From assembly GCA_964016885.1 (NCBI GenBank), contig OZ024742.1, positions 317,316,001 through 317,380,000 on the forward strand: a stretch of DNA of 64,000 bases. Reading direction: 5' to 3'. The notes under the pieces are model-generated. The model worked only from the letters and a program-made list of their open reading frames with translations, did not search any database and had not been told where the DNA came from. This stretch comes from Eledone cirrhosa (Eukaryota). Positions 14,851 to 64,000 of the stretch are shown here, in pieces; the stretch's first letter is position 1, and the number at the start of each line of letters is the position of its first letter. A program made the translations under genes and the position numbers.

Positions 14851-15458
14851 TGGTGGCTGCCAACTCGTTTTCGAGTACGGCCACTACTTTATATCCATGT
14901 AGGAGAACCCCTACCGATGCGCTGAACGAGTGTGACTTTTTAGTCCAGCCAGCGACTTGAAAACTCCGGCACAAACACTACACTTGTGACAATTATTGAC
15001 ACAGTGTACATGGTACCATGTGACGACAAGTGCAGAGAGATCTCCAGATACAAAGCAATGCCTGTGCCGTGAAGCTTTTATAGTGAGCAAAGGCACTGCA
15101 CAAAGCCAGTCCCACTCTCTTAACCAAGATGATATTTACCAAAAAGAAGAACAAGTCAACATCATTGGATACCATCAGGGTTGCAGGTGTTATATCAGAG
15201 TTTTCCTTCTCCTAGAATTCTGCCTTGACAAAGGCTAAGGGGTCATCTCTCCCGGTGATTTTAGATGGCCATTGACTCTTAATAGCTCCTCTGCCCTTTG
15301 ACATGTTTTGTTTTTAGTCCTGCAGGATGTCCAAAGTCACCCTCCTCACCAAGAAACCTTGGTGGGGTTGCCAGTTTAGTCGCCAACGACCCGACCATGA
15401 GACAGGTTGTACTGGGATACATGTTACCAGTAGCATCAAGTGGTGACCTGACATAACG
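14851..15458 (-). mobile_element. Non-autonomous bipartite RTE-derived retroposon, copy 1 (longest)
   Basis: Near-identical to 41424-42007 and 55091-55518. The 5' part aligns with the RTE 5'UTR at ~40930-41160. The 3' part encodes [23 protein letters not shown], like the RTE C-terminal finger. (TGTA)n tail. Confidence 0.88.
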
Positions 15459-15522
15459 TACATACATACATACATACATACATACATACATACATACATA
15501 CATACATACATACATACATACA

Positions 15523-15585
15523 TGATGATGGCTGCCCCCTCGTTATCGAGTATGGCCATTGCAGGAGACAATATATATATTGCAG
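15523..15585 (-). mobile_element. Orphan 3' terminus of the RTE family
   Basis: TGATGGCTGCCCCCTCGTTATCGAGTATGGCCATTGCA is identical to the RTE end at 53318-53354 and is preceded on the + strand by (TACA)n. Confidence 0.85.
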
Positions 15586-15598
15586 TTATTATTATTGC

Positions 15599-15650
<52 letters not shown>

Positions 15651-16553
15651 TGCATTTATCTTCCTTTATGTTTATACGAGTTATCACCAAGTCACAACCA
15701 GTGACCTCAAGAGACATCAAGGTCCGCCATGTTCAAGAAAGAACACACATATTCACACATGCATCCTTAGTGTTTAGACTTGTGATGTACTTATATTGAC
15801 AGGATCTTCCTTAGTATATGGGCAGTGCCCATTAGTACTATCTTTTGTATTTCTCCTATACGCGGGTTTCCTGGGATTTGCGATAAGTAGTCGTTAGACC
15901 CCTTAGGTATCATTCCCAGAGCGCCTACAACCACTGGTATTGTTTTAGTTCTCAATTTCCACATTTTTCCAATTTCTATCTCCAGGTCCTTATACTTGCT
16001 CAATTTTTCAAATGTTTTTATAGATACATTCTTGTCTATTGGAACAGACATATCAATTAGCAGGCATACCCTCCTTTGAAAGTCCTTCAATATTATATCA
16101 GGTCTATTTGCATCTATTTTTCGGTCTGTTTGGATGCTAAAGTTCCACAAGATTGAGATGTGATCTTTTTCAAGTATGGGAGGTGGTTGATGCTCCCACC
16201 AATTCCTTTGATGGGGCAGGTCAAAATGCTTACACATTATCCAATGTATGTATTGTGCAGCTCTGTCATGCCTGTTTAGGTATTCGGTTGGAGCTATAGG
16301 ACTGCACATTGAAATTATATGGTCAATGGTCTCTGGTTGTTTTTTGCATACACGGCATAATGGGCTGCACCCATTTTTTATTATGTTGGCTTGGTAATTT
16401 TTTGTTGGCAGACACTGATCTTGTGCCGATATAATCAGTCCTTCAGTCTCCGATTTCAGTCCAGAGGATGCCAACCACTGATGGGTTAAAGTTTTGTCAA
16501 CATCAGGATTGTTAGCTCGCTCTGGGTATTTTCCATACAGAGGCTTTTCTTGC

Positions 16554-16557
<4 letters not shown>
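15651..16557 (-). mobile_element. R4/Dong-like RLE retrotransposon family B, 5'-truncated copy B1
   Basis: ORF 15791..16474 has CCHC (CRVC...HIISMC), RHD and the RPD...IDMSVP...K RLE motifs; (TTA)n on both sides. Confidence 0.92.
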
Positions 16558-16617
<60 letters not shown>

Positions 16618-16826
16618 GGCGACCTACGTAGGAAATCGTATTATCGTGAGCTCCGCAAAGGTTTGTTATTTTCGTTTGTTTAAAAATTGCCATTTATAGA
16701 AAATTTTATTGTAAACTGTTTATAAGCACACATACATTGTTTTCCGAAAAGGACACCCAAAAAGATTGGGGTCTTGTGCCCAAAATTTTAACTTTTATTA
16801 TTATCCAAAAATTTCTTTGAAAAAAA

Positions 16827-18817
16827 ATGGCTAATTCCCCTCTGCACGAAGCAGCTGAAAGCCTTCCTCACAAATTAACACCTCACACCGACACCACCAT
16901 TGTAAATGTTACTACGTTTGCCAACACAAAAAAAAATATAAGCAGTAGCAATATTTTAAATTTGTCTCAGGCAGACATTCATTTCCCGCCATTACCAATG
17001 ACTGCAGGTGTTAAACCCTCCACCACCACCACCACCGCGACAACCACCACCACCACCACCACCGCGACAACAGAAACAAAAGAAGAAAAAAATAAATTAA
17101 CTCGTGACGTCGAAATGAAATCAAGCAAAATGGACTCTTCCCCACCAAAGACGACTGACGTCACCACCACCACAACTGAAAATAAAATTAATATTAACGA
17201 TAGCAACAACAACAACAATGACATTATAAAACCGACCCTCAGTTTCGCCATCGTAGCAAAACAATTCGAAGCGTTCACGGTAACTCAAGAAGATTTAGAA
17301 AATGCCAAACAAATGGTAAAGAAAGATGGGTACAGGGTCAGCCTCACCCCCCCCCCCCCACCTAATAAAATGGAGCATCGGCGCCTGTGCACCGTGTCGT
17401 ATAGAACAATAAATGTAAAATCGCGCCGAGTGGAACGGGCATCCGAGTCCCAAATCCAAAAAGCTTTGGGACATGTGTGGGCAAGAAAAACCCACATCAG
17501 ACGTGGGCAAAAGTATGGAACCGTGGATGTGTTCTTTGAAACACCAGAGGAGGCTAGAGAACACTCCATGGCCCCATTAAAAAGTGACGACTTCACACTC
17601 GTCCCAAGCTATTGTGGCCAGAGACTCGTAAAGATCAGGGTGACCCACGTTCCACCGGCCATCGAAATTCCCTGGCTAATAGCGGCTGTCATCGCCGGCA
17701 TCGAGGCCAACACGAAATTAATAACAATAGCAAAAGAAAAGCAGGAAAACTGGTCCGGATCTGGGATGGAGCTCCTGATCCAAGCGGACCAAAAAAGCAT
17801 TGAGGAGATCCCAGAGGTAATAGACCTCACTGACGGCAGCCACCTCACGGTAATTGTCGAGGGCAGAAGACCTAGGTGTGTCGTTTGTGGTGAAGGAACC
17901 CACCTAAGGGCTTTCTGCCCTCAGACTAAAAGGTTGAGGCCACCTCTCCTACCCACCCCAGTGACACAACCATCAACACCACCAGTAGCAGAGATGCCAG
18001 CAACAACTGTAGCAGCAACAACAGAAGCAACTATAACAGCAACAACCCCAGCAACAGTAGCAAAACCAACACCACTACCACCACCAGCAAAACCAACACC
18101 ACCACCACCCAACGCTTCAGAACTAGCACCAGCGCCTACACCATCCACCACACCACAACCAAAACTAACGGCTGTGGAGGATTTTCCACTCCCCGGCCTA
18201 TCACAACTGGAGACAGATTGTGACGACGAGGAGTGGGAAACGATATCCGGAAAAAAAAAAGAAACCAAAAAAGAAAAAATTCTCTTCCTTCCCCCTCCAA
18301 AAACAAAATACAGAGGGAAACAAATAAACTAAGAAACAAAAAAGTTAGGACAGATATGCCACCATCCACACCAGCATCACCAACCCCATCAACCCAAACA
18401 CCAACACCATCACCATCATTAACTCCAACACCACCATCACCTACACCACAAAAGTCACCAAAATTCGAAACAGAAACAAACCCACAACAAACGCAAACAA
18501 AACAAAACAACCAAAACGATACACACTACACAGCATTAAATTTGAACAACAAGCAATTATTACACTACATCCAACACAACACCAGCATCACAGAAAAAGA
18601 CTACACAACAACCCCAAAATTCACACCACCTCCACACATACAAATCACTCGCATCACACAGAAAACGTACATGACACTAAAACAAAAATTCCCCAAAGAC
18701 ATCGGAGACTTCCGACAAGCACTCTCCAGGAGGATTTATAAGGACATCCTTCCTGAGGAGGCCACAAGCAGTGAAAAGGATGGAAAAGCCGTCCTTCCCC
18801 TACGAGAAGTAAGGTAA
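16827..18817 (+). pseudogene. Tx1-like ORF1 (gag-like, CCHC zinc knuckle), frameshifted near the A-run at ~18255
   Basis: CVVCGEGTHLRAFC knuckle; Thr/Pro-rich flanks; continues in ORF 18233..18817; homologous to ORF1 at 31560-33279. Confidence 0.85.
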
Positions 18818-18851
18818 GTGGTCTTTCCCATCTTTTCCACTCCTTTTCAAC

Positions 18852-21800
18852 ATGACCTCACTCAGAATAGGCAGCATAAATGCGTGTGGCTTGGGGTCGT
18901 CATGGAAGCAGGGCCACCTGCTCAACGACCTCAGGTCACTAAACATAGATGTAGTGGCCATCAGCGAGACCAGAATCTCCGAAGCACAGGCTTTCGCACC
19001 GATCTTCGGCGGCTACGGTGTGTACGCATCTCCCAGCCGTCCGGGATCGGGGGGAGGAGTTGCTGTGCTTTTTAGGAGAGGTTTGGATCTTGCCATACGG
19101 GCCATCTTCCTGGACCCAGAAGGTAAGTTGGTGGTGCTGGACGTGACCAGCGGAGACGGGCAAGCTTTCAGGTTAGTGGCCGTCTATGCCCCGACAGGAG
19201 CAGGGCGGCCTGATTTCTTCCGGCGTCTGGAGACCTTTTTTGGAACGTCCCGCTCTTTAGTGTTAGTGGGCGACTGGAACGGGATCTTAGATGCACGCTG
19301 GGATTGTGTGGGATTAGTGGATAGGGAAGGAGGGTGCAAGAGTCTCACCAACCTGCTCAGACGTTTTGAACTGTCTGACAGGTACCGAATGGATTTCCCG
19401 AATGTACCAATGTGGACTTGGACAAATCGCATAGGGTCATCCAGATCATATCTAGATAGAGTATTTTGTAGGGAAATAGATAGGTCTAGCATAGGCTGTC
19501 CACAATTCAAGATAGTCAGCTACACGGACCACAAATTCGTGATCTGTGTGCTTGACTTAGATAGGCTTCATAGACGAGGACCCGGCTACTGGAAGCTAAA
19601 CGCGTCCTTACCAGCGCGCAAGGCCTACAGAGACCGGATTAGCGAACTAGTTAAGCGGGCGTTGACGGGGGCCATCGTCAACAACAAGTGGTGGTTTGCT
19701 CTGAAAAGAGCAATTAGAATAGAGTCCATTAGGTTTAGTAAGACTTTAGCAATAGAGAAAAATAGAGCAGAGGGAGAACTAGTTAGAAAATTAGATGAGG
19801 CGCTTAGCAAAGGCATCGCGACCGACGTACTTGCGGCGAAATTGGCCCTTGACCAATTCTTCAATGCAAAGCACGAAGGCTGCGTTGTCAGAGCTAGGGT
19901 GCGTGCTCTCAGACACGAGGGGACGAAAGCCGTTTAATGGGCCCGAGTGGCGGAGGCGCGTCGTGGCAACAAAGCCACGATCCGGTCTTTGGTGGACCAC
20001 GACGGGCGCATGCTACTCGATCCCGGGCAAATGTGTGAAGCTTTTCAGCGACACTTCGCTCAACTGTTCGGGGGCAGTGGCGGGCCGGATTGAGGGATGG
20101 ACTTTAGTGTCTACCTCGACGGACTGCCGCGGCTCTCGGCCACTGAGGCGGAGTGTTGCGAAAAGCCGATAACAACCGCTGAAGTACGGATGCAATGACT
20201 AGTTGCACAAGGGGTAAATCGCCTGGTTTGGATGGTCTGCCCTATGAACTTTACGTACAAATGCCAAACTTGTTCGGAGGCCTCTTGGCGGACGTCTACT
20301 GCAACTGGCAACAGAACGGGAGAATTCCCAGCTCTGTGAGCCGAGGAGCGGTGGCACTGCTGAGAAAGGATCCGAACAAGGGGGATAACATAGATAATTT
20401 TAGGCCCATAACTCTGCTAAACACAGAGTTCAAGATTTTGGACAAGGTGCTAGCAAAGAGGTTGGCGCTTGTCGTTGGTGGTCTGGTGGGAGAGGCACAG
20501 ACATGCGCCATTCCCGACAGATCCATCCACGACAACCTCCACCTCATGCGATACATCGTAGAGAGGGTAGCTGGAGAACCTGGCACGGGTGGGTCTTTGA
20601 TCAATTTAGATCAGTCGAAAGCCTTCGATAGGGTCGACCATCGTTACCTAGCGGCAGTCCTGAGGGCGGCTGGCTTTGGGCCCGTCTTCAGAGGCTGGAT
20701 CGCTGCCATGCACAATGACATCTGCTCTGTAGTGAGAGTGAACGGTCACCTTTCGGAACCGTTCAACATCATGCGCTCGGTCCGCCAAGGATGTCCTCTC
20801 TCGTCCCTATTGTACGTATTGACTCTCGAGCCATTACTGCACAAACTGGAGACGTTGAGGGGGGTCCCGCGCGAACTAGGATGCGGAAGATCCGTGTCAG
20901 CTATGCCGACGATGTCACCGTAGTGGTGTCGAACGCCAAACACATCGAGGCGATCGGCACTACACTAAGAGAATACGAAGCGGTGACAGGAGCAATGATC
21001 AACCAGGAAAAGTCAGTGGGCCTGCAGCTCAGCACCTGGAGAGGCAGGTCCATGCCGTCCAACAGCGTCGTCGGGCGCTGGACGGACGGACCGGTTAAAT
21101 TGCTAGGGGTCTGTTTCGGTCCAGACCTCCAGACGGACAAAAACTGGGACGAGGTGACGAGCAGGGTGGCTTCTCTCACCCAGAAATGGGCCGAGAGGAA
21201 GCTATCCCTGAAAGGTCGAGCGGAGGTGGCGAATGCGTACATCGCATCCGTCATCTACTACCGCCTGACCGTCGTACCTTGTCCTAAGCCCCGCCTGACT
21301 GCGCTGGAGCGTTTGCTCTTTCGCTTCTTGTGGAAGGGACGCGCTCCGATGGTCAGGCGGTCCATCTGCTGTCAACACCCGCTACGTGGAGGGCTGGGCA
21401 TGCCGTGGCTGATGATGCGCAGACACGCGCTCAGGCTACGACATCTCCACCTCTTCCTCGACGGTGATCAGGTGTAGTCGTCGTTTGCAAGACACGTTTT
21501 TACCCAGCTCGTCTCCTTGACGGAGCTGCAGTCCTGGGTCAAGCGAAGACCGAGAGGGAGCGCTTGGAGACTGGAATGTCTTCAGGCGCTCACAGCCCTC
21601 GACCAATCGGGCAATGTGATCGGTGGAAACTCCACCTTGGCGTTCTATAGGGGATTAGTGGAGGGGAAGAGCGACGACGTACTTGGAGAAACACTAGGCG
21701 TCGACGAAAATCAACTAGCCAATCTCTTCGAAAGGACTTTCGGGCCAGGGCCTATGGACAACTTCCAGAAATCCCTGGCCTGGCAGTGCTACCGAGGAGC

Positions 21801-22270
21801 TTTGCCAGTTCGGGATAAACTCTACAGGCATGGAGGTGCCGTCAAACCGGGCATGTCCGAGATGCGCGCAGGGCGACGAAACCGTCCTGCACGCACTCGT
21901 CCAGTGTCCGAGCATTGCTGACTTGTGGGTTTATGTCGAACACCTGCTGTCACGTGTAGGACGGATCCAGCTATCAGTTGAGTCCATCGTGAGGATTGCC
22001 CCGCCCCCTTCCTTTAGCCTGGAAGGGCAGGCAGTTTTTATCTGTCTGGTGGCCATGGCGAAAGAGATAGTATGGTGGACACGTTTGAAAGGGCTGAAGA
22101 CGAGCACTTACCTCTTCGGTGATGCCCTGATTAACTTTTTCAAATTTCATTTGAAAAGGAAAATCAGGGTAGAGAGGGAAGTGCTCTCTTCCCAGCATTT
22201 TGTTGAAAGATGGGTGAGAGAAGCAAGTATGGCCCGAATGAATGGGCCTTCTCTGAGTATGTGTCTGTAA
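18852..22270 (+). pseudogene. Tx1-like ORF2: APE endonuclease, reverse transcriptase, C-terminal CCHC; several stops and frameshifts
   Basis: GSINACG, ISET, VYAP, GDWN, LDRVF, YTDH (APE); KSPGLDG, FRPITLLN, KAFD, RQGCPLS, YADD (RT); CPRC...HALVQC. Confidence 0.93.
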
Positions 22271-22512
22271 ATTAAAGGTGGAAAACTGGGAGAGGGCACT
22301 TGCCCTGGTGGTCAGGGCCACTGTGGTCTTTTAATGGGCTTTCTCCACAAATGTCCCTTGGAAGTCTCCCCCCTATTGGGGAATTTTTCTTTGTTATTTT
22401 ATTTCAACCTCTGTTTTTTTACACGCAGAAATGCCCATTTGTACCGTCCTGTATTGTCCTGTACTGTCCTTAATGTCTACTTTATGTGAACCCTTGTGGT
22501 TAATAAAGAAAA

Positions 22513-22552
<40 letters not shown>

Positions 22553-25500
22553 GTTCTTTGAGTCTCAGTCATTGATGTTAGTTAACTGGAAAGTTTGTTG
22601 AAATGAATATCAAGCCACTACCTGCAGCCTCAGATATTCAGGACGTATCGGAGGGTTCTTGCTGTTCCCAACAAGCATGCCTTTTGAAGCGTTCCAAAAA
22701 GCGTGGCTGGGCCAATTTTCTTTAACCATCCCTGGAAACTTTTTGAGATAGTACCTAGTGTGCCTATGACAATCGGGACCACTTTGACTTCATGGCAGTT
22801 CCAAATCCTTTTTACCTCCCACTTTAAGTCCTGGTGTCGGTTAATTTTCTCCCTCTCCTTCTCTTGCACTCTCGTGTCAAATGGGCAGGCCACATCCACA
22901 ATCAGGCACGATCTTTTTTCTTTGTCCAAAACCACCAGGTCAGGTCTATTGTGTTCCAATTTTATGTACGTCTGTATCCTAAAATCCCACAGCACCTTCA
23001 CCTGATCGTTTTGTATCACCGACTCTGGCTTATGCTCAAACCACTTCTCAGAATGTGGTAAATTGTTTACCTCACCCTGCCCATCACATCATGTCTCCAG
23101 CCCATATAGTGAGTCTGGGCTAGATGTTTACACTCGGATACAATGTGACCCACAGTCTCATCTCTCTCTCCACAGATTCTGCACAGTGGGCTAGCCTCCT
23201 CCTTGTAAATATGGTGTTTCAACCACTTCGTTTTGAGGGCCTGCTCTTGCGCAGCCATTAACATTCCTTCTGTATCCTTTTTAAGGTCTCCTCTTTTCAA
23301 CCAGTTCCATGTCTGTGGATCTCTGAATTCAGTTTCTCAAAGAAGGTACTATGAAGGGATTTTTCAGTCACGTATTTGTGTAGGTTGTTTTTCTCCATCT
23401 GAACACAGTCCTCTATGCTGATAAGACCTCTTCCACCTTCAGATCTCCTTAAGTAGAGTCTATCGACATCACTCCTCTTGTGGAACATGTTGTAGATAGT
23501 CAATAGCTTCCTAGTCTTCCTATCCATTTCTTTTTGTTCAGCAACATTCCATCTCAGAATTCCCGCACTGTACCTAATAATAGACACAGCTCGGGAATTT
23601 ACTGCACTTATGGCATTCCTACTGTTCAGATGTGACTTTAATACGCTCCTTACTCTCCGAATGTATTCAGTTCTTATCAATTCCTTCATTTTTTTGTTCT
23701 TGATCTCATCAGCCTCCAAAACACCCAAATACTCGTATCCTTCTTCAGAGTCAATTTCCTTTATCATCTCACCTGTTGGTATCTGGATTCCGTTACTTCT
23801 GCTCAACCTACCCCTCCTCATCACAATGACTCCACACTTACTAATACCAAACTGCATACATATATCACTGCTGAAAATACGGACAGTGTCAACAAGCACA
23901 TCCAACTCCTTCTCACTCTTCCCGAAGAGCTTAAGATCATCCATGAAGAGGAGGTGATTGATGGTAAGCTCTCCCTTTCCCAACTTGTATCCTGCTCTCA
24001 CTTTTCGAAGTATAATGGCCAGGGGCATCAGGGCAAGGACAAACAACAGAGTGTACAGACTATCTCCCTAGAAGATACCTCTCTTGATCTTCACTCCTCC
24101 CAAGGAATCTCCAGCTGATATTAACTCTGTTTTCCAGGACTTCATACTTTTGCCCAACAACTGTCTGATGTTATCTGCCACGTTGAAGATCTCTAGGCTT
24201 TTGGTGATCTAAGAATGAGGCACCATGTCAAATGCCTTTCTGTAGTCTATCCATCCCATGGCAAGACCAGTGTGTCTCCTCTTCCAATTCCTCATTACCA
24301 TCTTATCAATAAGTAACTGGTCCTTTGTACCACGGGACTTCTTTCGGCATCCTTTCTGTTCGTCCGGTAACAAGTTGTTTGTGTAGAGGTGATGGTAGAT
24401 TTCCTCAGACATAATGCTTGTCAACAGTTTCCACATTACGCACAGACATGTGATAGGTCTATAGTTGGTAACATCATTAACCTTGATTCGGTCTTTCATT
24501 ACCAGAACTGTAGTACCTTTTGTCAACCACTCTGGTACCTCACCTGACATCAAGCAGTCATTGAACATGGTTGTCAGTTTCAGGTGGAGGGATGTTATAT
24601 TTTTAATCTAATACCCCTGCACACCATCTGGGCCTGGTGATTTCCAGTTGGTTAGTTTTTTGGCCTGCCCCTTAAGAGTTTCAACTGTGATACTCAAATC
24701 AGTTTGTTGGTGTGCCTGTTCACTAATCTCCTTTTGTACTGTCTCAATCCAAACTGTCTGGTCAATATGTTTAACATCCTGCTCCCATATTCCTCTCCAG
24801 AAGGTCTTAGTTTGTTCCGCCTCAGGGATCAAGTCGTTGCCTCTTTCTTTCCCTTCAGGCTGTCCAAACAGCATCTTCTGGTTGTTGTCAAACATGCGGT
24901 TCTGTCTATACTGACTGACTCTGCTCTCGTATCGCCTAATTTTTGCACTCTTTGCTACAATGCGTTGCTTCAGTTCCTCTATGATAATATTTAGCTTTTA
25001 CCTCCTAGTTTTGTACTTTATCTCCAGTCTATTTTTAGTGTCTATGTTTTTTAGTATCCCATTCAGTAGGGACTCAAGCTTTCCAATGTCATTTCTCATT
25101 TCCCTGATTCGAGCATTCAGTCGTTTCTTCCACCAAGGCTCTGATCTTTTTTGTTTGTTGTTTCCTCTCGCTTTTATGCCAAGTAATTTCCTCACCACAT
25201 TTGCTGGTGCTTTGAGGATATTGTTGCACTGGTGAAGGCTCCTCGCCTCAAGGTATGGGATGACTTTGTTTACCTTAGCTGTTGTTTCTTTTAACTTTTT
25301 CCTGTCTACAAATCTTAGGTTCATAGGTTTCCCACTATCATTGTTCAATTCATCTACCACTAAGTTTAGGATATCAACCAAATCTTGTCCTAGCCCGTCA
25401 GCATTCATCTCCTCAATGGCCGTATCTTTGTTCCAGGTATTATTTATTTCAGCATTCAGATCATTGTCTGCTTCGGATGGTTCCTCCGTTCTCTCAACCT

Positions 25501-26786
25501 CTTCACCTTCATTTCCCACTGGCTCGTTTGCCTGGCATACTCCACTCTCCATTTCCAACCTAATCTCTCTGCTCAGTTCCTCCAGTTCCAGCTCGCTTAT
25601 CCACACATTAGTTCTTATTACCCGAGCCTACCCGGCCAATTTTTGTTCATCTAATTTAAATAGACCAATCTCGTTCCAGATGTTATGCATCCGTTTCCTA
25701 TAGCCTTTCTCCTTGGGGTTACTCTTCAGGTAACATTGCATAACAGTTCTATTCAATTCTTTCGTCCAGTTGGTTCTGGTCCCTTTCCTTCTTCTTCTAC
25801 CTCCGACACCAGCAGTATTTGGTTGACAGCCAGGTCCCTGCTGCTGAGCCAGGGAGCACCTGCTGGGTGAGAGTCTGTCACATGACATTCCAGTCTCCAC
25901 TTCACCGTTATTCGAACTGTTTAGGTTCGACATTTAAACACTCTTATCGAGGATTGGTGAATGTATGGTTGCATAACCACCGGTGATTTTTTTGTGTGGC
26001 ACTATCACGCTGTAGACGAACATAAATAAACAAACAAACAAATAGGTAAAAAAAACAACCAAAAAGAATAAGCATAAGTTTCATTGTAATGTAATGTTTG
26101 AATGTTTGACTTAGTTTTTCTTTTCCCTTCTCTGTCTGTCTGTTTGTTTTTCTTTTCATTTTTCTTTCCTTTACGTTTTTCGTTGTTGCTGTGCTGCTTT
26201 GATTTTGATTTTTGTTTTTTTGATTTTTTTGACAGGGTCATCAAATCAGTCTATTTATATCTTTTGATACCTTCCTCTTTTAGTGGGAACACTACGATGC
26301 ATGTCTTAGCAGGAGGCAGTGGGGAGAATAGCGGCAGTAGTGATAATGAGGCAGTGGTTGTGGTGGTGGCGGTGCTGTGCTAGTAGTACTTAGCAGGAGG
26401 GAGTGGGAGAGAATAGCGGCGGTAGCGATAATGAGGCAGTGGTGGTGGTGATCTGATCGTAGTACTGTAGTGATGGTGTTGAAGTTGAAGTAGAAATAGA
26501 AGTTGAGGTAACTTGACTAGAGCTTTTGGCTGTTCACATTTAGCTATTTAGCCATTTTGCCATTTTCCTCTTTTTCGACTATAACATTTCTGATCCAAAA
26601 TTAAATATTAAATATTGGGGCCCTATGCCGTAAAGTGATGCGTTATGGCTTGCTGAGCATTAAAACTGTAATCTTATTGTTCATTTGTAATAAGAATTAT
26701 TCTATCACAGTTGTTTTAAAGAAGTAAAAATCAAAAACTTACGGGAGCGATTCCATAACGATATATATCCACCATGTGCGTTTTCT
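22553..26786 (-). mobile_element. R4/Dong-like family A, apparently full-length copy A1 (frameshifts and internal deletions)
   Basis: ORF pieces from 25933 to 22630 are colinear with the 1038-aa ORF at 59422..62538; FMDD RT, CCHC and RPD RLE motifs; ~850-bp 5'UTR; (TTA)n on both sides. Confidence 0.92.
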
Positions 26787-26803
26787 TTATTATTATTATT
26801 ATT

Positions 26804-30521: not shown

Positions 30522-30526
30522 TTATT

Positions 30527-30567
<41 letters not shown>

Positions 30568-30570
30568 AGT

Positions 30571-31285: not shown

Positions 31286-31286
<1 letters not shown>
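30571..31286 (-). mobile_element. Family B, 5'-truncated copy B3
   Basis: ORF 30711..31229 is near-identical to the C-terminus of B1 and B2; same 3'UTR; (TTA)n on both sides. Confidence 0.92.
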
Positions 31287-31340
<54 letters not shown>

Positions 31341-35284: not shown

Positions 35285-35328
<44 letters not shown>

Positions 35329-35340
35329 GTTATTGTTATT

Positions 35341-42007: not shown

Positions 42008-42102
42008 CATACATACATACATACATACATACATACATACATACATACATACATACATACATACATACATACATACATACATACATACATACATACATAC
42101 AT

Positions 42103-51580: not shown

Positions 51581-51746
51581 CATACATACATACACACATA
51601 CATACATACATACATACATACATACAGATGGACATGCGTACATACATACATACATACATACAGACGGACATACATACATACATACATACATACATACATA
51701 CATACATACATACATACATACATACATACATACATACATACATACA
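51581..51746. repeat. (TACA)n tract
   Basis: Read directly; abuts the family D element. Confidence 0.95.
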
Positions 51747-53283: not shown

Positions 53284-53317
53284 CATACATACATACATAC
53301 ATACATACATACATACA

Positions 53318-53386
53318 TGATGGCTGCCCCCTCGTTATCGAGTATGGCCATTGCACAATAAAAAAAAAAAAATAAATAAAAAAAAA

Positions 53387-53437
<51 letters not shown>

Positions 53438-53469
53438 GAAAAAAAAAAAAAAAAAAAAAAAGGGAAAAG

Positions 53470-53506
<37 letters not shown>

Positions 53507-53628
53507 TATTCATATATATATACATACACATATATATACACACACACATACATACACATACATACATATATACACACACACATACATACACATACACTCA
53601 CACATATATACACACATACATTAATAAC

Positions 53629-53674
<46 letters not shown>

Positions 53675-53759
53675 GCAATAATATTAATAACGACAACAAC
53701 AACAATAATATACATATTCATATATATATACACACACACGCACGCACATAAGCATATCC

Positions 53760-53791
<32 letters not shown>

Positions 53792-55049
53792 GATAGCAAC
53801 TAACAGTGCTGCGATCGAATGTGGCTTTTTAGCCCAGCCAATGATCTAAAATGTCTTGCACAGAGTCGGCAACCAAAACATTTACTGGGAATAGTCGGCT
53901 GTGGTTGGAGTTCGTGTACTTTTGCATGTCGCTTGAGTCCTCCTGCTGATTTACATTCTCTACCACATGTTTGGCAAGCATGATGAGTAGCATCTCCAAC
54001 AGCAGCCTGGTAGTCAACCACTGGTCTTACTTTATGACTGCGAAGATGACTTTCGAGTCCAGCTTTGCTTAGGCAGAGTCTCGCACAGACGCTGCATGTC
54101 AGAAACATAGGAGGACCCTCGCCGTCTGGAAGTGCAACAGCAATACCCTTCCTCACGTTCCGCTTTACTTTCTCGTGTGCGATTCGAGATGCCTCAAAGG
54201 CAACTTTTCCCTCATATACAGTCTTTCTCCATTTATTACGATCAGCAGCAATATTTTCCCATGTATCAGCAGAGATGTTAGCGTCTTTCAGAGAGGCCTT
54301 CAAGGAATCCTTATACCTCTTTTTTGGTTTATGTGGCGGTCGTTTTCCTTTAACCAACTCTCCATAGAAGAGTTGTTTTGGTATTCTAGAATCCTTCATC
54401 CTGGCAAGGTGACCACTCCAACGGAGTCGCTGCTTAAGCACAAGAGCTTCTATACTGTCACACATAGAGCTTTCCAAAATCTCGACATCACTGATGTGGT
54501 CCCTCCAGCGAACGCCATGTATCCGTCTGAGACACATCTGATGGAAACGCTCCAATTGCCTAAGGTGGCGTCGATATGTGACCCAGGTCTCGCAGGCATA
54601 AAGAAGACAAGAGAGTACACATGCCCTGTACACCCTTACCTTTGTCCTCCTGCATATGTCTCGCCGACCCCAGAGTCGCCTTTCTAGCTTTCCGAAAGCA
54701 TCACTTGCTTTCCTAATCCTAAGTGAGATTTCACTGTCAAGGTTGCCGTATCGATTGACAGTGCTTCCCAGGTAGACAAACTGATCAACCACTCCAAGTC
54801 GTTTGCCATACACATAGATGTTTGGTTCAGTGTACTGCCTACCAGGTGCAGGTTGGTACATGACGACGGTTTTCTTGAGACTGACAGTCAAACCCAGGGC
54901 AGTGCAAGCGTCAGAAAATACATTCAAAATGTGCTGCATATCACTCTCTGTGTGCGCTACAAGATCGCAATCATCTGCATACAAGAGGTCTCTTATGACT
55001 GATGTAAATACCTTTGTCTTCGCAGCAAAGCGCCTGATGTTAAATATGC
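53318..55049 (-). mobile_element. RTE/BovB-like LINE copy 2, 5'-truncated, open 3' ORF with three C2H2 fingers, microsatellite-filled 3'UTR
   Basis: ORF 53800..~55049 has YADD, FVYLGS, LRWSGHLARM and three CxxC...H...H fingers; terminal hairpin at 53318-53354; (TACA)n on both sides. Confidence 0.92.
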
Positions 55050-55090
55050 ATACATACATACATACATACATACATACATACATACATACA

Positions 55091-55518
55091 TGGTGGCTGC
55101 CAACTCGTTTTCGAGTACGGCCACTACTTTATATCCATGTAGGAGAACCCCTACCGATGCGCTGAACTAGTGTGACTTTTTAGTCCAGCCAGTAACTTGA
55201 AAACTCTGGTACAAACACTACACTTGTGACAATTGTTGACACATAGTGCTGGGCCCATGGTACCATGTGACGACAAGTGCAGAGAGATCTCCAGATATAA
55301 AGCAATGCCTGTGCCGTGAAGCTTTTATAGTGAGCAAAGGTACAGCACAAAGCCAGTCCCACTCTCTTAACCAAGATGATATTTACCAAAAAGAAGAACA
55401 AGTCAACATCATTGGATACCATCAGGGTTGCAGGTGTTATATCAGAGTTTTCCTTCTCCTAGAATTCTGCCTTGACAAAGGCTAAGGGGTCATCTCTTTC
55501 GGTGGTTTGGATGGCCAT
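55091..55518 (-). mobile_element. Non-autonomous bipartite RTE derivative, copy 3 (5'-truncated)
   Basis: Matches 14851-15272; (TACA)n on both sides. Confidence 0.88.
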
Positions 55519-55561
55519 ACATACATACATACATACATACATACATACATACATACATACA

Positions 55562-55594
<33 letters not shown>

Positions 55595-55595
<1 letters not shown>

Positions 55596-56916
55596 GAGTA
55601 AAGAAAATATGGTCATCAGAACTGTCAGCGTACAACAAATTCATTGCCTACAATATTTATGCTGTGCCAATTCTAACGCCAACATTTGGCCTGCTGAACT
55701 GGTCATTGCAAGAACTAAGTGAGATGGATGTTAGAACTCGCAAACTTCTCAGTGTTATTGGGAACTTTAACATCAATGGTGATGTGGATAGGCTATACTT
55801 CTCACGCAAGGAAGGTGGTCGGGGTTTAAAATCCATATTAACAACATATGAGACCCGGATAGTAGCACTGAAGCAACACCTTCATCAGAGGAAAAAGGTT
55901 GGCAACCATCTTGCCCAGGTTTATGAGCATGAAATAAAAATATCATTAGAATAGCGACTGATCTGGAGGAGAGATATGGAATAAAGCCTGATATAAATCT
56001 CTCACCCAGAGAAATCGGAAGCTCCTATTCAATGTTCAAACAAGATAAAAAAAATTAACCAATTTACAGAAAAAGTTGTGCATGGATACTTGAGACGTAA
56101 AACACAGTTCTTAGAGAGGATAAACCACTCAAAAGGCCTGGCATGGAGTTCCGACAAGTTTATGACATCACACCTTGAGGGATATCTCTAGGCAATACAG
56201 GAACAAGAACTCCCTACCAAATATCTGCTGCACAAAAGAGGAGGGCCAGCAGCTGACAATAAATGTAGGCTATGTAAAACAAAGATCGAGGATGTAAGCC
56301 ACATTGTTGCCAGCTGTGAAAGAATGTCATCTCGCTACTACCTCCCCATGAGACACGATGGGATAGCTAGAACCATCTGGAACGCACTTCGGAAAACAAA
56401 ATTAACAACAAACGAGGAAGAATATATTGAGACAGATGGCACTAAGGAATACTGGTGGAACCTGAAAATAAAAACTGCTACCAAATTAAGCACAACCGGC
56501 CTGATATTGTTGTTTGGGACCACACATTGAAAACGTGTTCTGTTGTGGAGATCAGCTACCCACTTGATGTAAACGTTGTCAGAAAAATACAGGAGAAGGA
56601 GGACATCTACGGACCATTGATGAGGAGTTTACAAATCCAGTATCCAAGATACACCTTTAGCTTCATACCCATCATTATTGGAGCTATGGGTTATATACCA
56701 ACCCGCTTGGACCAAAGTATGACTGAACTTGGATTTGCGGACAAAGAGCGCAGCTCCCTAATTCACAGTCTACAAATGGCTGCGATAGCTGGCACCTTCA
56801 AAATTTGCAAGACATTCTTGCGATTCAAGGGATGACAATTTCTTTTCTTTTACAACCTTGCCACAAGGAAGGTGGCCGGTCAAAAAAATATACTCGAAAT
56901 TAAGAGAAAGAGATAA
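55595..56916 (+). mobile_element. Family C, 5'-truncated copy C2
   Basis: Near-identical to 44986-46286; begins after (TACA)n and ends GAGATAACATACA. Confidence 0.9.
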
Positions 56917-57739
56917 CATACACACAGGCATACATAAATACAAAGAAATACATTTTGAACTTCAACAGAGAAAATCGTCACTAAATAGGCAAATTCGAAA
57001 ATCAACACCCTTTTAAAAGCAGACAACTACCAAGTTGTATAATTTCCTTTGACCTATTCAGCTTACCCATTACAAGGCCCTAGAGCTACCTCCCTACTTA
57101 CCACCATCCGCGTTGAGCTGGATAGCCGCAGGTGTGAGCCTCGCGAGATGGAATCGCTTTTCTCGCAGATCTCCATTATCATCCCCCGGATAAACGCATT
57201 CTCCACTCTGTCCGCCAGGGCCGTGGGGTGGTCAGCACGCGGGACCCAATTTTCTCATAATAGAGAGAGATGGAGAGGGCGAGAGAGATGGGGTGGGCGA
57301 GAGAGAAGGAGGCGATGACAGTGGGAATTCGGCTCATGTGTTTGAACCTGGTGTACAGCATCAGTTATCCGTAAGGAGGTAGTGATACATCTACTATTAT
57401 CTTGGATGCTAATCTGCATTACACCTTATTCTATCTAGAATCTAACATATATAGTATCAATACAGAATAATTGTCGAATAATACAAACCTGAAGCTTCTG
57501 TAGCCAACTCTGATATCAGGCGTCGTACCTCAATCTTTCAATTGTTATTCCATAACGAAATGTGCTTTAATGAAATTATTTACATTCGTTCCATACAGAT
57601 AATTCAATCTTCCTGTAGTAGCCTCATTCTCAGTTTTCTAGGTCTCATGCCGATCCAAGTAAATAATTATATAGTGAATGTTATTTCAAATCAAAACATC
57701 AAATCAATCTGACAGCATAAAGTTTTCTAGACGTTTTAA

Positions 57740-58210: not shown

Positions 58211-58819
58211 GAGAGACAGAATGGGTAGACATTGTGAGAGCAAGGGTGAGAGGAAAGAGAGGAAGAGAGAGAAAGAGTAGAGAATATATGATAGAAATAC
58301 AGAAAATTAATTAAAAGTAGGAGGAAGAGTTATAAAATGAGAATGGCGAGAAGGAAAAATAAATCTTGAAGTTAAGCTTTTGGAAGTAGGACTGTCGTTT
58401 CTGATAAAGGGATAAAAAACATTATTGAATAATAAAGATCCTATGATATCACTAAACTGAAGAAAATTTTATATTTTTATCGATTGATTCTTGTAGTTTT
58501 CTTTCATTATATTTCACGCCATTCCATCAATCGGAATATTTAGTTTTTTGATATTTTCCCTTTCATTACATATAATTTATCTTCTTTATTTTTTTTTCTC
58601 ATGCATAAATTATTACTTCAAAACAATTTTTTATTGAAAGTTTTTCCTACATGTATTTTTAGGGGGTGGGGGTTGTATTAGTTTCACTAATATTGTTCTC
58701 ATTAACCACCCAGTTCTGCGTTCTATTTTCATTGAAATCCAATTAATTTAATTTACACAATCAATGCGTTACGGAAATGCATGAAGGTCTTACATTCACT
58801 TATTATTATTATTATTATT

Positions 58820-58938
58820 TACGATCTGAGTTCAAATCCCGCCGTGGTTGACTTTGCCTTTCATCCCTACGGGGTCGATAAAATAAAGTACCAGTAATGC
58901 ACTGGGTAATTGCTGGCCTTGTGCCTAAAGTAGAAACA

Positions 58939-58940
<2 letters not shown>
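58820..58940 (+). mobile_element. 5'-truncated tRNA-like SINE embedded in (TTA)n
   Basis: B-box GAGTTCAAATCC; matches 47925-48037; (TTA)n on both sides. Confidence 0.82.
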
Positions 58941-58970
<30 letters not shown>

Positions 58971-58990
58971 ATATTATTATTGTTGTTATT

Positions 58991-61900
58991 TCTTGAATCT
59001 CAGTCATTGATGTTGGTTAACTGGAAAGTCCGTTGGAATGAATATCAAGCCACTACCTGCAGCCTCAGATATTCAGGACGTATCGGAGGGTTCTTGCTGT
59101 TCCAAGCAAGCATGCCTTTTGAAGCGTTCCAAAAAGCGTGAAGGGGCCGATTTTCTTTAACCATCCCTGGAAACTTTTGGAGATAGTCCCCAGTGCGCCT
59201 ATGACAATCGGGATAACTTTGACTTCATGGCAGTTCCAAATCCTTTTGACCTCCCACTTTAGGTCCTGGTATCGGTTAATTTTCTCCCTCTCCTTCTCTT
59301 GCACTCTCGTGTCGAACGGGCAGGCCACATCCACAATCAGACACGATCTTTTTTCTTTGTCCACAACCACCAGGTCAGGTCTATTGTGTTCCAGTTTTTT
59401 GTCTGTCTGTATCCTAAAATCTCACAGCACCTTCACCTGATTGTTCTCCATCACCGCCTCCGGCCTATGTTCATAACATTTCTCAGAATGTGGTAAATTG
59501 TTTACTTTGCACAGGTGCCAGTGGATCACCCTGCCCATCACATCGTGTCTCCAGCCCTTATAGTGGGTCTGGGCTAGGTGTTTACACTCGGACACAATGT
59601 GAGCCACAGTCTCCTCTCTCTCTCCACAGATCCTGCACAGTGGGCTAGCCTCCTCCTTGTAAATATGGTGCTTCAACCACTTCGTTTTGAGGGCCTGCTC
59701 CTGCGCAGCCATTATCATTCCTTCTGTAGCCTTTTTGAGGTCTCCTTTTCTCAACCAGTTCCATGTCTGTGGATCTCTAAATTCAGTTTTCTCAAAGAAG
59801 GTACTATGAAGGGATTTTCCCTTAAGGCTGCTCTTCCTCCTTGATGTTATTTCCTCCTTGGACATCCCCTGGCCTACTGTCCCCTCCTTCAGTACAGTTT
59901 TGAGCATTGGCTCCTTACTATAGGTCACGTATTTGTATAGGTTGTTTTTCTCCATCTGAACACAGTCCTCTATGCTGATAAGACCTCTTCCACCCTCAGA
60001 TCTCCTTAGGTAGAGTCTATCGACATCACTCCTCTTGTGGAACATGTTGTAGATAGTCAATAGCTTCCTAGTCTTCCTATCCATTTGTTTTTGTTCAGCA
60101 ACATTCCATCTCAGAATTCCCGCACTGTACCTAATTATAGACACAGCTCGGGAATTTACTGCGCTTATGGCATTTCTGCTGTTCAGATGTGACTTCAATA
60201 CGCTCCTTACTCTCCGAATGTATTCAGTTCTTAACAATTCCTTCATTTTTTTGTTCTTTATGCCATCAGCCTCCAGAACGCCCAAATACTTGTATCCTTC
60301 CTCAGAGTCAATTTCCTTTATCATCTCACCTGTTGGTATCTGGATCCCGCTACTTCTGCTCAACCTACCCCTCCTCATCACAATGACTCCACATTTAACA
60401 ATACCAAACTGCATACATATATCACTGCTGAAAATACGGACAGTGTCAACAAGCACATCCAACTCCTTCTCACTTTTCCCGAAGAGCTTAAGATCGTCCA
60501 TGAAGAGGAGGTGATTGATGGTAAGCTCTCCCCTTCCCAACTTGTATCCTGCTCTCACTTTTCGCAGCATAATGGTCAAGGGCATCAGGGCAAGGACAAA
60601 CAACAGAGGGGACAGGCTATCTCCCTGGAAGATACCTCTCTTGATCTTCACGCTTCCCAAGGATACTCCAGTTGATGTCAACTCTGTCTCCCAGGACCCC
60701 ATACTCCTGCCCAGCAGCTGTCTGATGTTATCTGCCACCCTGAAGATCTCCAGGCTTTTGGTGATCCAAGAATGAGGCACCATGTCAAATGCCTTTCTGT
60801 AGTCTATCCATCCCATGGCAAGATCAGTGTGTCTCCTCCTGCAGTTCCTCATTACCATCTTATCAATAAGTAACTGGTCCTTTGTACCACGTGACTTCTT
60901 TCGGCATCCTTTCTGTTCGTCCGGTAACAATTTGTTTGTGTGGAGGTGATGGTAGATTTCCTCAGACACAATGCTCGTCAACAGTTTCCACATTACGGGC
61001 AGACATGTGATAGGTCTATAGTTGGTAACATCATTACCCTTGATTCGGTCTTTCATTATCAGAACTGTGGTACCTTTTGTCAACCACTCTGGCACCTCAC
61101 CCGACACCAAGCAGTCATTGCACATGGCCGTCAGCTTCGGGTGGAGGGATGTTAAATGTTTAATCCAATACCCCTGCACACCATCTGGGCCTGGTGACTT
61201 CCAGTTGGTTAGTTTTTTGGCCTGGCCCTTAAGAGTTTCAACTGTGATACTCAAATCAGTTTGTTGTTGTGCCTGCTCACCGATCTCCCTCTGTACTGTC
61301 TCAATCCACCCTGCCTGGGCATTATGTCTAACATCCTGCTCCCATATTCCTCTCCAGAATGTTTTAGTTTGTTCCGCCCCAGGGATCAAGTCGTTGCCTC
61401 TTTCTTTCCCCTCAAGCTGTCCAAACAGCATCTTCTGGTTGTTGTCGAACATGCGGTTCTGTTTATACTGACTGACTCTGTTCTCGTATCGCCTGATTTT
61501 GGCACTCTTTGCTACAATGCCATGCTTCAATTCCTCTATGATAATATTTAGCTTTTTACTCCTAGTTTTGTATTTTATTTCCAGTCTATTTTTAGTGCCT
61601 ATGTTTTTTAGTGTCCCATTCAGTAGTGACTCAAGCTTTCCTATGTCATTTCTCATTTCCCCGATTTGCCCACTCAGTCGCTTCTTCCACCACGGCTCTG
61701 CTCTTTCTTGTCTGTTGTTTCCTCTCGCTTTTATACCAAGTAGTTTCCTCACCGTATTTGCTGTTGCTTTGAGGATATTGTTGCACTGGTGAAGACTCCT
61801 CGCCTCAAGGTATGGGATGACTTTGTTTACCTTAGCTGTTGTTTCTTTTAACTTTTTCCTGTCTACAAATCTTAGGTTCATAGGTCTCCCACTATCATTG

Positions 61901-62476
61901 TTCAATTCATCTACCACTAGATTTAGGATGTCAACCGAATCTTGTCCTAGCCCGTCAGCATTCATCTCCTCAGTGGCCGTATCTCTGTTCCAGGTATTAT
62001 TTATCTCAGTATTCAGATCATTGTCTGCTTCGGGTGGTTCCTCCGTTCTCAGGACCTCCTCACCTTCATTTCCCACCGGCTCGCTTGTCTGGCATACTAC
62101 ACCCGCCATCTCCAAGCCATTCTCTCTGCTCAGTTCCTCCAGTTCCAGCTCGCTTATCCACCCATTAGTTCTTATTACCCGAGCCTGCCCGGCCAATTTT
62201 TGTTCATCTAATTTAAATAAACCAATCTCGTTCCAGATGTTATGCATCCGTCTCCTGTAGCCCCTCTCCTTGGGGTTACTTTTCAGGTAGCATTGCATAA
62301 CAGTTCTATTCAATTCTTTCGTCCAGTTGGTTCTGGCCCCTTTCCTTCTTCTTCTTCCTCCAACATCAGCAGTATTTGGTTGACAGTCAGGTTCCTGCTG
62401 CTGAGCCAGGGGGCACCTGTTGGGTGAGAGTCTGTCACATGACGTTCTAGTCTCCATTTCACCGTTATTCGAACTG

Positions 62477-62480
<4 letters not shown>
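58991..62480 (-). mobile_element. Family A copy A5: nearly intact ORF (lacks ~4 N-terminal codons, one TGG>TGA stop at 59422)
   Basis: 1038-aa ORF with N-terminal domain, RT (FMDD) and CCHC; the RLE continues in the same frame to 59065; flanked by (TTA)n. Confidence 0.95.
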
Positions 62481-62509
<29 letters not shown>

Positions 62510-62520
62510 GTTATTGTTAT

Positions 62521-64000
62521 TCCTTGAATCTTAGTCATTGATGTTGGTTAACTGGAAAGTCCGTTGGATTGAATATCAAGCCACTACCTGCAGCCTCAGA
62601 TATTCAGGACGTATCGGAGGGTTCTTGCTGTTCCAAGCAAGCATGCCTTTTGAAGCGTTCCAAAAAGCGTGAAGGGGCCGATTTTCTTTAACCATCCCTG
62701 GAAACCTTTGGAGATAGTCCCCAGTGCGCCTATGACAATCGGGATCACTTTGACTTCATGGCAGTTCCAAATCCTTTTCATCTCCCACTTTAGGTCCTGG
62801 TATCGGTTAATTTTCTCCCTCTCCTTCTCTTGCACTCTCGTGTCGAACGGGCAGGCCACATCCACAATCAGGCACGATCTTTTTTCTTTGTCCACAACCA
62901 CCAGGTCAGGTCTATTGTGTTCCAGTTTTTTGTCCGTCTGTATCCTAAAATCCCACAGCACCTTCACCTGACTGTTCTCCATCACCGCCTCTGGCCTATG
63001 CTCATACCATTTCTCAGAATGTGGTAGATTGTTTACTTTGCACAGGTGCCAGTGGATCACCCTGCCCATCACATCGTGTCTCCAGCCCTTATAGTGGATA
63101 TGGGCTAGGTGTTTACACTCGGACACAATGTGAGCCACAGTCTCCTCTCTCTCTCCACAGATCCTGCACAGTGGGCTAGCCTCCTCCTTGTAGATATGGT
63201 GCTTCAACCACTTCGTTTTGAGGGCCTGCTCCTGCGCAGCCATTAGCATTCCTTCTGTAGCCTTTTTGAGGTCTCCTCTTCTCAACCAGTTCCATGTCTG
63301 TGGATCTCTAAATTCAGTTTTCTCAAAGAAGGTACTATGAAGGGATTTTCCCTTAAGGCTGCTCTTCCTCCTTGATGTTATTTCCTCCTTGGACATCCCC
63401 TGGCCTACTGTCCCCTCCTTCAGTACAGTTCTGAGCATTGGCTCCTTACTATAGGTCACGTATTTGTATAGGTTGTTTTTCTCCATCTGAACACAGTCCT
63501 CTATGCTGATAAGACCTCTTCCACCCTCAGATCTCCTTAGGTAGAGTCTATCGACATCACTCCTCTTGTGGAACATGTTGTAGATAGTCAATAGCTTCCT
63601 AGTCTTCCTATCCATTTGTTTTTGTTCAGCAACATTCCATCTCAGAATTCCCGCACTGTACCTAATAATAGACACAGCTCGGGAATTTACTGCGCTTATG
63701 GCATTTCTGCTGTTCAGATGTGACTTCAATACGCTCATTACTCTCCGAATGTATTCAGTTCTTAACAATTCCTTCATTTTTTTGTTCTTTATGCCATCAG
63801 CCTCCAGAACGCCCAAATACTTGTATCCTTCCTCAGAGTCAATTTCCTTTATCATCTCACCTGTTGGTATCTGGATCCCGTTACTTCTGCTCAACCTACC
63901 CCTCTTCATCACAATGACTCCACATTTACCAATACCAAACTGCATACATATATCACTGCTGAAAATACGGACAGTGTCAACAAGCACATCCAACTCCTTC
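62521..64000 (-). mobile_element. Family A copy A6, open ORF running off the right edge
   Basis: ORF 62596..63993 is near-identical to A3; (TAA)n tail at 62481-62520. Confidence 0.93.

Follow-up and report, generated by a model that had tools for sequence, protein, structure and literature searches.

We analysed a 64,000-nucleotide stretch of the Eledone cirrhosa genome (assembly GCA_964016885.1, contig OZ024742.1, positions 317,316,001 to 317,380,000 of the forward strand), hereafter the window, in which positions are counted from its first letter. From about 14.7 kb to its end the window consists mostly of copies of retrotransposons without long terminal repeats (non-LTR elements), set apart by spacers that read (TTA)n or (TACA)n on the plus strand. 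The copies were recovered by self-BLAST, open reading frame (ORF) searches, translation, Pfam analysis and junction print-outs, and comprise R4/Dong-like elements with a restriction-like endonuclease (RLE), Tx1-like and RTE elements with an apurinic/apyrimidinic endonuclease (APE), non-autonomous RTE derivatives and SINEs (short interspersed nuclear elements). The original prediction for this DNA held that RLE elements take the A-rich strand, and APE-type or APE-dependent elements the T-rich strand, of the same repeat. This local pattern proved to be real and largely right, but the class rule is unsupported; we consider it fairly probable that the window holds nested arrays of microsatellite-seeking non-LTR retrotransposons whose polarity is fixed by lineage and not by endonuclease class.

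Twelve R4/Dong-like copies were identified, assigned to four families of which A (three copies) and B (six copies) lie on the minus strand, and C (two copies) and D (one copy) on the plus strand. Family A includes the longest copy, A2 (26802..30530), with reverse transcriptase (RT), zinc knuckle and RLE, and the 5'-truncated A1 (15651..16554) and A3 (30567..31287), all with sense (TAA)n at both ends. Sense (TAA)n is likewise found at both ends of B1 (22551..26786), which has a long 5' untranslated region (UTR), of the 5'-truncated B2 (35327..36823) and of the long copy B4 (58967..62477). The remaining B copies are Bf (33280..35284), a 5' part with (TAA)n at its 5' end only, B3 (36860..37384), a 3' part with (TAA)n at its 3' end, and B5 (62508..64000), which is cut by the window end and has (TAA)n at its 3' end. 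On the plus strand, the long C1 (42102..46288) and the 5'-truncated D (51747..53285; 37-46% amino acid identity to C) carry sense (TACA)n at both ends, and the 5'-truncated C2 (55590..56917) carries (TACA)n at its 5' end and a decayed 3' tail. In a hand tally of the junction print-outs, the A-rich unit stands on the sense strand at 20 of the 23 RLE ends inside the window and the T-rich unit at none; the three other ends are the repeat-free fusions at the Bf 3' and B3 5' ends and the decayed C2 tail. As had been predicted, all twelve copies show the A-rich unit in the sense direction, be it at one end or at both.

In all four families the RT precedes a zinc knuckle and an RLE at the C terminus, which is the single-ORF layout of R4/Dong elements. 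Pfam recognised RVT_1 and, weakly, zf-RVT, and the alignment of A2 with R2Tg, a solved R2 protein, spans the RT, the knuckle and the PD..D..K region (E 7e-14). An RPD motif was found in seven of eight RLE read-throughs, the exception being C2, which is frameshifted at that place; a regular expression for CCHC matched none of the eight, although CCHC is visible in the translation and in the R2 alignment. Amino acid identity among A to D is 25-46%, and in a quick tree of 59 rows (D, having no RT core, was left out) A, B and C form three lineages whose base is not resolved. The closest named relative of C1 is an Argonauta hians protein (62%), its sister in the quick tree with a support of 99 in the Shimodaira-Hasegawa-like approximate likelihood ratio test (SH-aLRT), which points to a probable octopod host. 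A Pfam match of a C1 fragment to TcdB_toxin_midC (E 0.007) fails the cut-off and was rejected as noise.

Clade labels in this study are based on architecture and motifs. With the known members of the Dong/R4 clade (Dong of Bombyx, DongAg, DongBg, Rex6), the window elements share one ORF that combines RT, a zinc knuckle and an RLE at its C-terminal end, and all nine A and B copies contact (TAA)n, as Dong does; C and D differ in standing in (TACA)n at five of their six ends, so that they work like Dong yet are not filed by us as Dong proper. Insertion of Dong into (TAA)n is known from insects, molluscs and cnidarians (PMC7998251, PMC3812793); one of these sources files it under APE (PMC3812793), whereas an RLE is given by the other and by a further report (PMC7998251, PMC1635306). 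A Myb/SANT-like domain at the N terminus, without zinc fingers, has also been described for the R4/Dong clade (PMC7998251). In family B, the long 5'UTR (25985-26786 and 33691-35284) varies from copy to copy, with 74-82% identity in blocks, and in Bf it includes three copies of a 140-bp unit at 34110-34525. The 3'UTR of C1 (46200-46288) is predicted to fold well above shuffles (z -3.9), which makes it a candidate RT-recognition structure.

Two Tx1-like elements lie on the plus strand. Tx1a (16616..22514) is a near-complete Tx1/L1-type element with a broken ORF2 encoding APE, RT and a zinc finger, and has (TTA)n at both ends, while Tx1b (31339..33279), the ORF1-containing 5' part of a second Tx1-like family, has (TTA)n at its 5' end and has lost its 3' half; three of the four Tx1-like ends (two of two in Tx1a, one of two in Tx1b) are hence bordered by the T-rich unit. 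Tx1a starts with TTG on the tract and ends in AATAAA-GAAAACA, with AATAAA 7 nt from the end and no poly(A). The architecture is that of the Tx1 clade, an RNA-binding ORF1 with CCHC followed by an ORF2 with APE, RT and zinc finger, of which Tx1b retains ORF1 only. Atlas features of the Tx1-like ORF1 score 0.90-0.93 to CCHC/ZCCHC3-like RNA-binding clusters; ORF2 of Tx1a matches Exo_endo_phos, RVT_1 and zf-RVT in Pfam, and its APE is nearest to L1-type endonucleases in the PDB. The two ORF1 sequences are 47-50% identical by tblastn, whereas a direct BLASTP of Tx1a ORF1 against Tx1b ORF1 gave no significant match. At 33279/33280 the convergent Tx1b and Bf are joined without any repeat, each minus its 3' half, probably by a deletion between tail-to-tail neighbours. 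Segmental duplication was considered as the origin of the two A-Tx1-B trios and rejected, as the Tx1 copies are alike only in patches of about 70% and the B 5'UTRs at 74-82%.

The RTE group lies entirely on the minus strand. RTE1 (37381..41200), with APE, RT and C2H2 in a broken ORF, lacks its 3' end at the junction with B3, and its 5' boundary is approximate; the 5'-truncated RTE2 (53318..55050) is 91.7% alike. A single APE-RT ORF, a short tandem tail and a 3' stem-loop place them in the RTE clade, the 3' end being absent from RTE1, and the best protein matches among those listed have 47-60% identity. In RTE2 the ORF stops at about 53800 and is followed by a T/G-rich microsatellite island of about 440 nt and a 39-nt terminal hairpin piece (53317-53355). 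We infer that this piece belongs to RTE2, because the T/G-rich island follows the ORF and the 3'UTR of RTE-2_OV, an O. vulgaris element with a C2H2 finger, is described as mostly microsatellite (PMC9115989). (TGTA)n borders the truncated 5' end of RTE2, and two of two ends if the 39-nt piece is counted. Neither end of RTE1 has a perfect tract within 30 nt: at the 5' end about 130 nt of decayed TG/TATG precede a TGTA tract, and at the 3' end the zinc-finger region is joined to the co-oriented B3 through a TAAA microhomology (37381-37384).

Three copies of a non-autonomous RTE derivative, Der1 (14851..15458), Der2 (41424..42009) and the 5'-truncated Der3 (55091..55517), carry sense (TGTA)n at all six ends. 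They are 71-74% identical to a block of the RTE1 5'UTR and 85% identical over the last 33 nt, and contain a C2H2-coding remnant; all three thus have a 5'UTR block and a 3' end in common with an autonomous RTE, as expected of non-autonomous partners. The hairpin CUCG-N4-CGAG is common to RTE and derivative, and beats shuffles in the derivative only (z -2.3), the folding energy of the two RTE ends being no better than that of shuffled sequences. All four copies with both native junctions (Der1-3 and RTE2) stand inside (TACA)n, and their 5' ends on tracts therefore point to entry into existing tracts. C1 and C2 stand 5' of Der2 and Der3, respectively, and every derivative 5' tract is common with a neighbour.

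An orphan RTE-type 3' end (15523..15585, minus strand) has a TGTA tail, sense (TAA)n on its 5' side, and 39 nt identical to 53317-53355. The RTE1 body (41200 to 37381) and this orphan end (15585 to 15523) are collinear on the same strand, each with TGTA-type sequence on its outer side, and the whole 21.8-kb TAA array may therefore be nested in a single RTE 3'UTR. Such nesting would need an inversion, as the RTE2 island has sense TTA and the array has TAA on the RTE1 sense strand. Alternatively, the orphan end may be an independent truncated or partly inverted insertion, combined with a deletion at the RTE1/B3 junction. A CAATATATATATTG palindrome was noted at a junction in the 15523-41330 region.

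The SINE is present in two plus-strand copies. SINE1 (58818..58939) is a 5'-truncated tRNA-type SINE with a B-box-like motif, preceded by (TTA)6 and followed by (TTA)9; SINE2 (47826..48051) belongs to the same family (90% over 120 nt), has no tract and ends in ATTATT only. No partner long interspersed nuclear element (LINE) for the SINE was found within the window. Short words ahead of (TTA)n are alike in Tx1a (GAAAACA, 22500-22514) and the SINE (GAAACAA, 58928-58939), a likeness too short for a claim of partnership. The SINE presumably resembles the CORE/OR2 type. OR2 has been classed as an octopus CORE SINE (PMC4758252). Several old SINE-like remnants, judged by eye, lie at 11790-13760, outside any TAA tract.

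Most of these copies are gathered in arrays. The first TAA array (15586..36870) is one tract that reads (TTA)n on the plus strand and is broken up by nine insertions, and the TACA array at 51581..56917 holds D, RTE2, Der3 and C2 with spacers that read (TACA)n on the plus strand. Such tracts are scarce in the DNA taken to be free of elements: 10,320 bp of it, in stretches picked by the analyst with the arrays excluded, contained 0 bp of TAA/TTA (four or more units) and 32 bp of TACA/TGTA (three or more units). Across 14688-55595, TACA is the plus-strand reading of every TACA tract in the arrays, and TTA that of either TAA array; this uniformity would in part be accounted for if the two TACA arrays were one split tract.

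On the APE side, the claim that copies next to these repeats have (TTA)n or (TGTA)n on the sense strand was sustained for Tx1a, the 5' end of Tx1b, Der1-3, RTE2 and SINE1. It did not extend to RTE1, with no perfect tract, to the orphan RTE end, which had been left uncounted and has sense (TAA)n on its 5' side, or to the tractless SINE2. In target-primed reverse transcription (TPRT) the nicked, priming strand is the complement of the element sense strand, hence the RLE copies would have been primed on the T-rich strand and the APE-type copies on the A-rich strand. This much of the predicted geometry stands, but the rule for endonuclease classes derived from it does not, and the priming strand differs from nicking selectivity in that tail pairing can choose among nicks. 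The further expectation that the arrays alternate in orientation failed: among 14 tract-sharing neighbour pairs, seven are opposite, four of them divergent and three convergent, the latter being the layout in which read-through yields antisense RNA.

The weight of the strand counts depends on the unit that is counted. Per insertion, the uniformity of the RLE copies is beyond chance (0.5^11 = 5e-4), but this shows orientation-keeping within families only, because TPRT predicts as much for any asymmetric target. Nor are the twelve copies independent, since A, B and C represent three deeply separated lineages within a single group, with 25-46% identity. Counted per lineage, the RLE/APE split is marginal (p 0.031 for six independent lineages, 0.0625 if Dong on TAA is taken as known), with three units on the APE side, namely Tx1-like, RTE with its derivative, and the SINE.

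The lineage-fixed reading would account for this pattern as follows. By TPRT insertion, each family would come to face one way in an asymmetric repeat, and as an insertion splits the tract and leaves repeat on both sides, arrays of one polarity would grow. A and B would follow the known Dong habit, with sense (TAA)n and priming on the T-rich strand, and C/D would be a related lineage with unchanged polarity whose target has presumably shifted from TAA to (TACA)n. The Tx1-like elements most likely make a specific APE nick on the A-rich (TAA) strand, in line with the Tx1-clade targets (TC)n, (TTC)n and (TTTC)n. For RTE and its derivative, polarity most likely comes from tail pairing after weakly specific nicks, because the hairpin and (UGUA)n RNA tail would find a pairing partner only in a primer that ends in (TACA)n. 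The (TTA)n of the SINE would on the simplest reading be its own tail, which is supported by SINE2 ending in ATTATT without any tract; nick and tail pairing explain the RTE and SINE strand equally well. The opposite polarity of RLE and APE families would then add up from the histories of a few lineages, in the manner of TRAS and SART, and the junction strands, constant within every family, support polarity fixed by lineage.

Several points weigh against this reading. All lineages with clean contacts obey the strand rule in both repeats, and a shared cause is possible (p 0.03 at best). The TGTA at the 5' ends of the derivative (three of three) fits tail pairing, but would equally fit a TACA-specific RTE nick. 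The quick tree contained no named Dong, R4, Hero, NeSL, Tx1 or RTE reference. Moreover, the endonuclease of the RLE element EhLINE1 nicks within GCATT (PMC1635306), a fit to an inherited R4-type RLE taste for ATT-containing strands, which was itself part of the original proposal.

Known systems illustrate how such patterns arise. TRAS and SART of the Bombyx telomeres are both APE elements and belong to the R1 clade. They take opposite strands of (TTAGG)n, and endonuclease swaps shift specificity (PMC7265360). Like the window families, they are distinct families on opposite strands of one simple repeat in mixed arrays; they differ in that both are APE elements with a telomeric target, whereas the partners in the window are RLE, Tx1-like and RTE elements on dispersed microsatellites. 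This precedent speaks against an RLE/APE rule. Waldo, the target of which is probably A-rich on the sense strand, contrary to the class rule, is an APE element on the same tetranucleotide repeat as TACA, but is an insect element of another clade. Its target is given as ACAY (PMC3812793). Among the targets of the Tx1 clade are (TC)n, (TTC)n, (TTCC)n and (TTTC)n (PMC4494074), and Kibi, on (TC)n, Koshi, on (TTC)n, and the crocodilian (TTCC)n/(TTTC)n families resemble the window elements as two-ORF APE elements in short pyrimidine-rich repeats; the window elements differ in their (TTA)n target, which is common with Dong-like elements, and are represented by two copies, one of them 3'-deleted.

With RTE-clade LINEs and their partners, including RTE-2_OV, the window elements share the APE-RT(-C2H2) ORF, a repeat-rich 3'UTR, a short tandem tail, the correlation of tail and target, and a derivative with a common 5'UTR block and 3' end, RTE-2_OV being compared by description only. 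RTE-clade LINEs are described as not sequence-specific, in contrast to Der1-3 and RTE2, all four of which lie inside (TACA)n. RTE-clade tails are either A-rich, as (CAA)n, (GTAA)n and (CTGAA)n, or T-rich, as (GTT)n (PMC6007223 Table 2); SINEs of one elephant RTE bear either type, RTE tails and targets are correlated, and the authors propose that the tail selects the cut or primes through pairing (PMC6007223). RTE 3'UTRs carry repeats of their own, and the repeats of RTE are often born from the tail (PMC2887409).

Loci outside the window were taken from RepeatMasker annotations listed for the transcriptome of O. vulgaris (PMC9115989 supplementary file 8). Among the 39 Dong-R4 rows listed, four contigs have a TAA/TTA-type tract, A-rich on the sense strand in three, with (TAA)n/(AAT)n (comp21622_c0_seq1, comp33075_c6_seq2, comp33099_c1_seq2), and T-rich in one, a weak Dong match whose sense side bears (ATT)n (comp33560_c6_seq1). 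Among the 26 RTE places listed, two contigs have a tetranucleotide, both T-rich with (TATG)n/(ATGT)n on the sense strand (comp33295_c7_seq1, directly abutting, and comp31846_c0_seq1). The layout of SINE on minus, Dong on plus and TAA recurs on comp33075_c6_seq2. In none of the OR2 rows listed (29 of 286 places) does a TAA/TTA tract adjoin the match within its contig, and the Tx1 rows (13 of 165 places) are short, low-score matches only. In MELT calls for one O. bimaculoides RTE, five rows have TACAT/TAATA in the target-site duplication (TSD) field, four of them with plus polarity, that is, A-rich on the sense strand, although most TSD fields seen are null, several calls are of the deletion type, and the RTE concerned may belong to another family than that of the window. 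Proteins reading into flanking repeats (YIHT, CMYV, poly-N/I/L/Y) were sought among the 120 RTE, 240 RLE and 150 Tx1-APE matches listed, with no informative case and no same-family copy. These loci are anecdotes that fit family-fixed polarity without establishing a class rule. On three further listed contigs (comp32965_c6_seq1, comp28701_c1_seq1, comp31844_c1_seq1), Dong-R4 matches are accompanied by (ATG)n/(TGA)n in either orientation, possibly a third target family.

A broader version of these events would extend to octopods at large. In it, two dispersed microsatellites were reached convergently by unrelated lineages, which share them out by strand genome-wide, with Dong-like RLE elements on the A-rich strand, one lineage having moved from TAA to TACA, and with the T-rich strand taken by a Tx1 specific for TTA and by an RTE that has a TGTA tail and is in effect site-specific; RTE 3'UTRs would seed TAA in TACA tracts, and the division would be kept by competition or antisense control. 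We regard this as unlikely. If true, microsatellites would be structured safe havens for several clades, comparable to silkworm telomeres.

Rather unlikely, too, is a selected partition of niches within the host, whereby APE families were favoured on the strand opposite to the Dong-like elements through less nick competition or mutual antisense control, and the split holds genome-wide in octopods without a biochemical law. All three APE-side lineages do stand opposite to the RLE lineages in two repeats, the comp33075_c6_seq2 layout is in agreement, and recent activity in O. vulgaris is reported for Dong-R4, RTE and L1-Tx1 alike (PMC13282606 Table 1). Three lineages all opposite, however, correspond to p 0.125, and each polarity has a simpler explanation in its lineage; the arrays do not alternate, four of the seven opposite pairs are divergent, and Tx1a has AATAAA just ahead of its end. 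If the split were shown to extend across the genome and to be under selection, it would stand as one of few instances in which retrotransposon classes partition a niche on a single dispersed target, and would allow nick specificity to be tested against priming by the RNA tail.

It is also improbable that the repeats beside the APE-type copies amount to no more than tails of these elements or tracts made by their neighbours, with no targeting, and that polarity is a by-product of a T-rich 3' end. The whole 3'UTR of RTE2 is T/G-rich on the sense strand, SINE2 lies outside tracts, RTE repeats are often tail-born (PMC2887409), and each derivative shares its 5' tract with a neighbour. Yet both Tx1 5' ends, the three derivative 5' ends and the truncated 5' end of RTE2 are directly on tracts, which is impossible for a tail; C1 and C2 lie 5' of Der2 and Der3, respectively, and outside their tails, and the tracts are scarce in the DNA taken to be element-free. 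This account appears true for the SINE and unlikely for the other APE-type copies.

The original prediction in its general form, that in any shared microsatellite RLE nicks the T-rich and APE the A-rich strand, is highly improbable: it is obeyed by all in-window lineages with clean contacts in two repeats and agrees with the EhLINE1 nick in GCATT (PMC1635306), with the TRAS1 APE nick at the T-A step of TTAGG (PMC7265360), which the TAA and TACA strands likewise contain, and with a few outside contigs, but it is contradicted by TRAS and SART (PMC7265360), by A-rich RTE tails and by human L1, an APE element that nicks the T-rich strand (PMC6007223), by the T-rich tail modelled for EhLINE1 on the A-rich bottom strand (PMC1635306), by the (ATT)n of comp33560_c6_seq1 and by the MELT rows given above, although these may come from another RTE family, and within the window the orphan RTE end is an exception and RTE1 is unscorable.

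Possibly new are the (TACA)n-targeting Dong-like lineages, the (TTA)n-inserting Tx1 and the tract-sharing, TGTA-tailed RTEs. In the literature excerpts covered we found nothing on R4/Dong elements targeting TACA, Tx1 elements targeting TTA, or RLE and APE elements sharing one microsatellite on opposite strands, although Repbase, subscription papers and a Zenodo library may already list the families. If lineage-fixed polarity alone holds, the value of the locus is modest and specific, with candidate targets TACA for R4/Dong-like, TTA for Tx1-like and TGTA for RTE elements. Related RLE enzymes on TAA and TACA would offer a natural pair for the study of shifts in target specificity, and microsatellite-built transposon hot spots in octopus genomes would gain an explanation.

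As for the rest of the window, a tRNA scan and an Rfam scan found none, and low-threshold Rfam matches at 40700-42800 were rejected as repeat artefacts. Free tracts without an inserted element are (TAG)n at 50110-50204 and (TGTA)8 at 49960-49991. Positions 1-8201 are occupied by a tandem satellite of 59 bp, in 139 copies with 93% matches and a strong G skew, behind which come 2.6 kb of low-complexity GTG/TTG/TTC DNA that contains an internal duplication at about 9100-10900.

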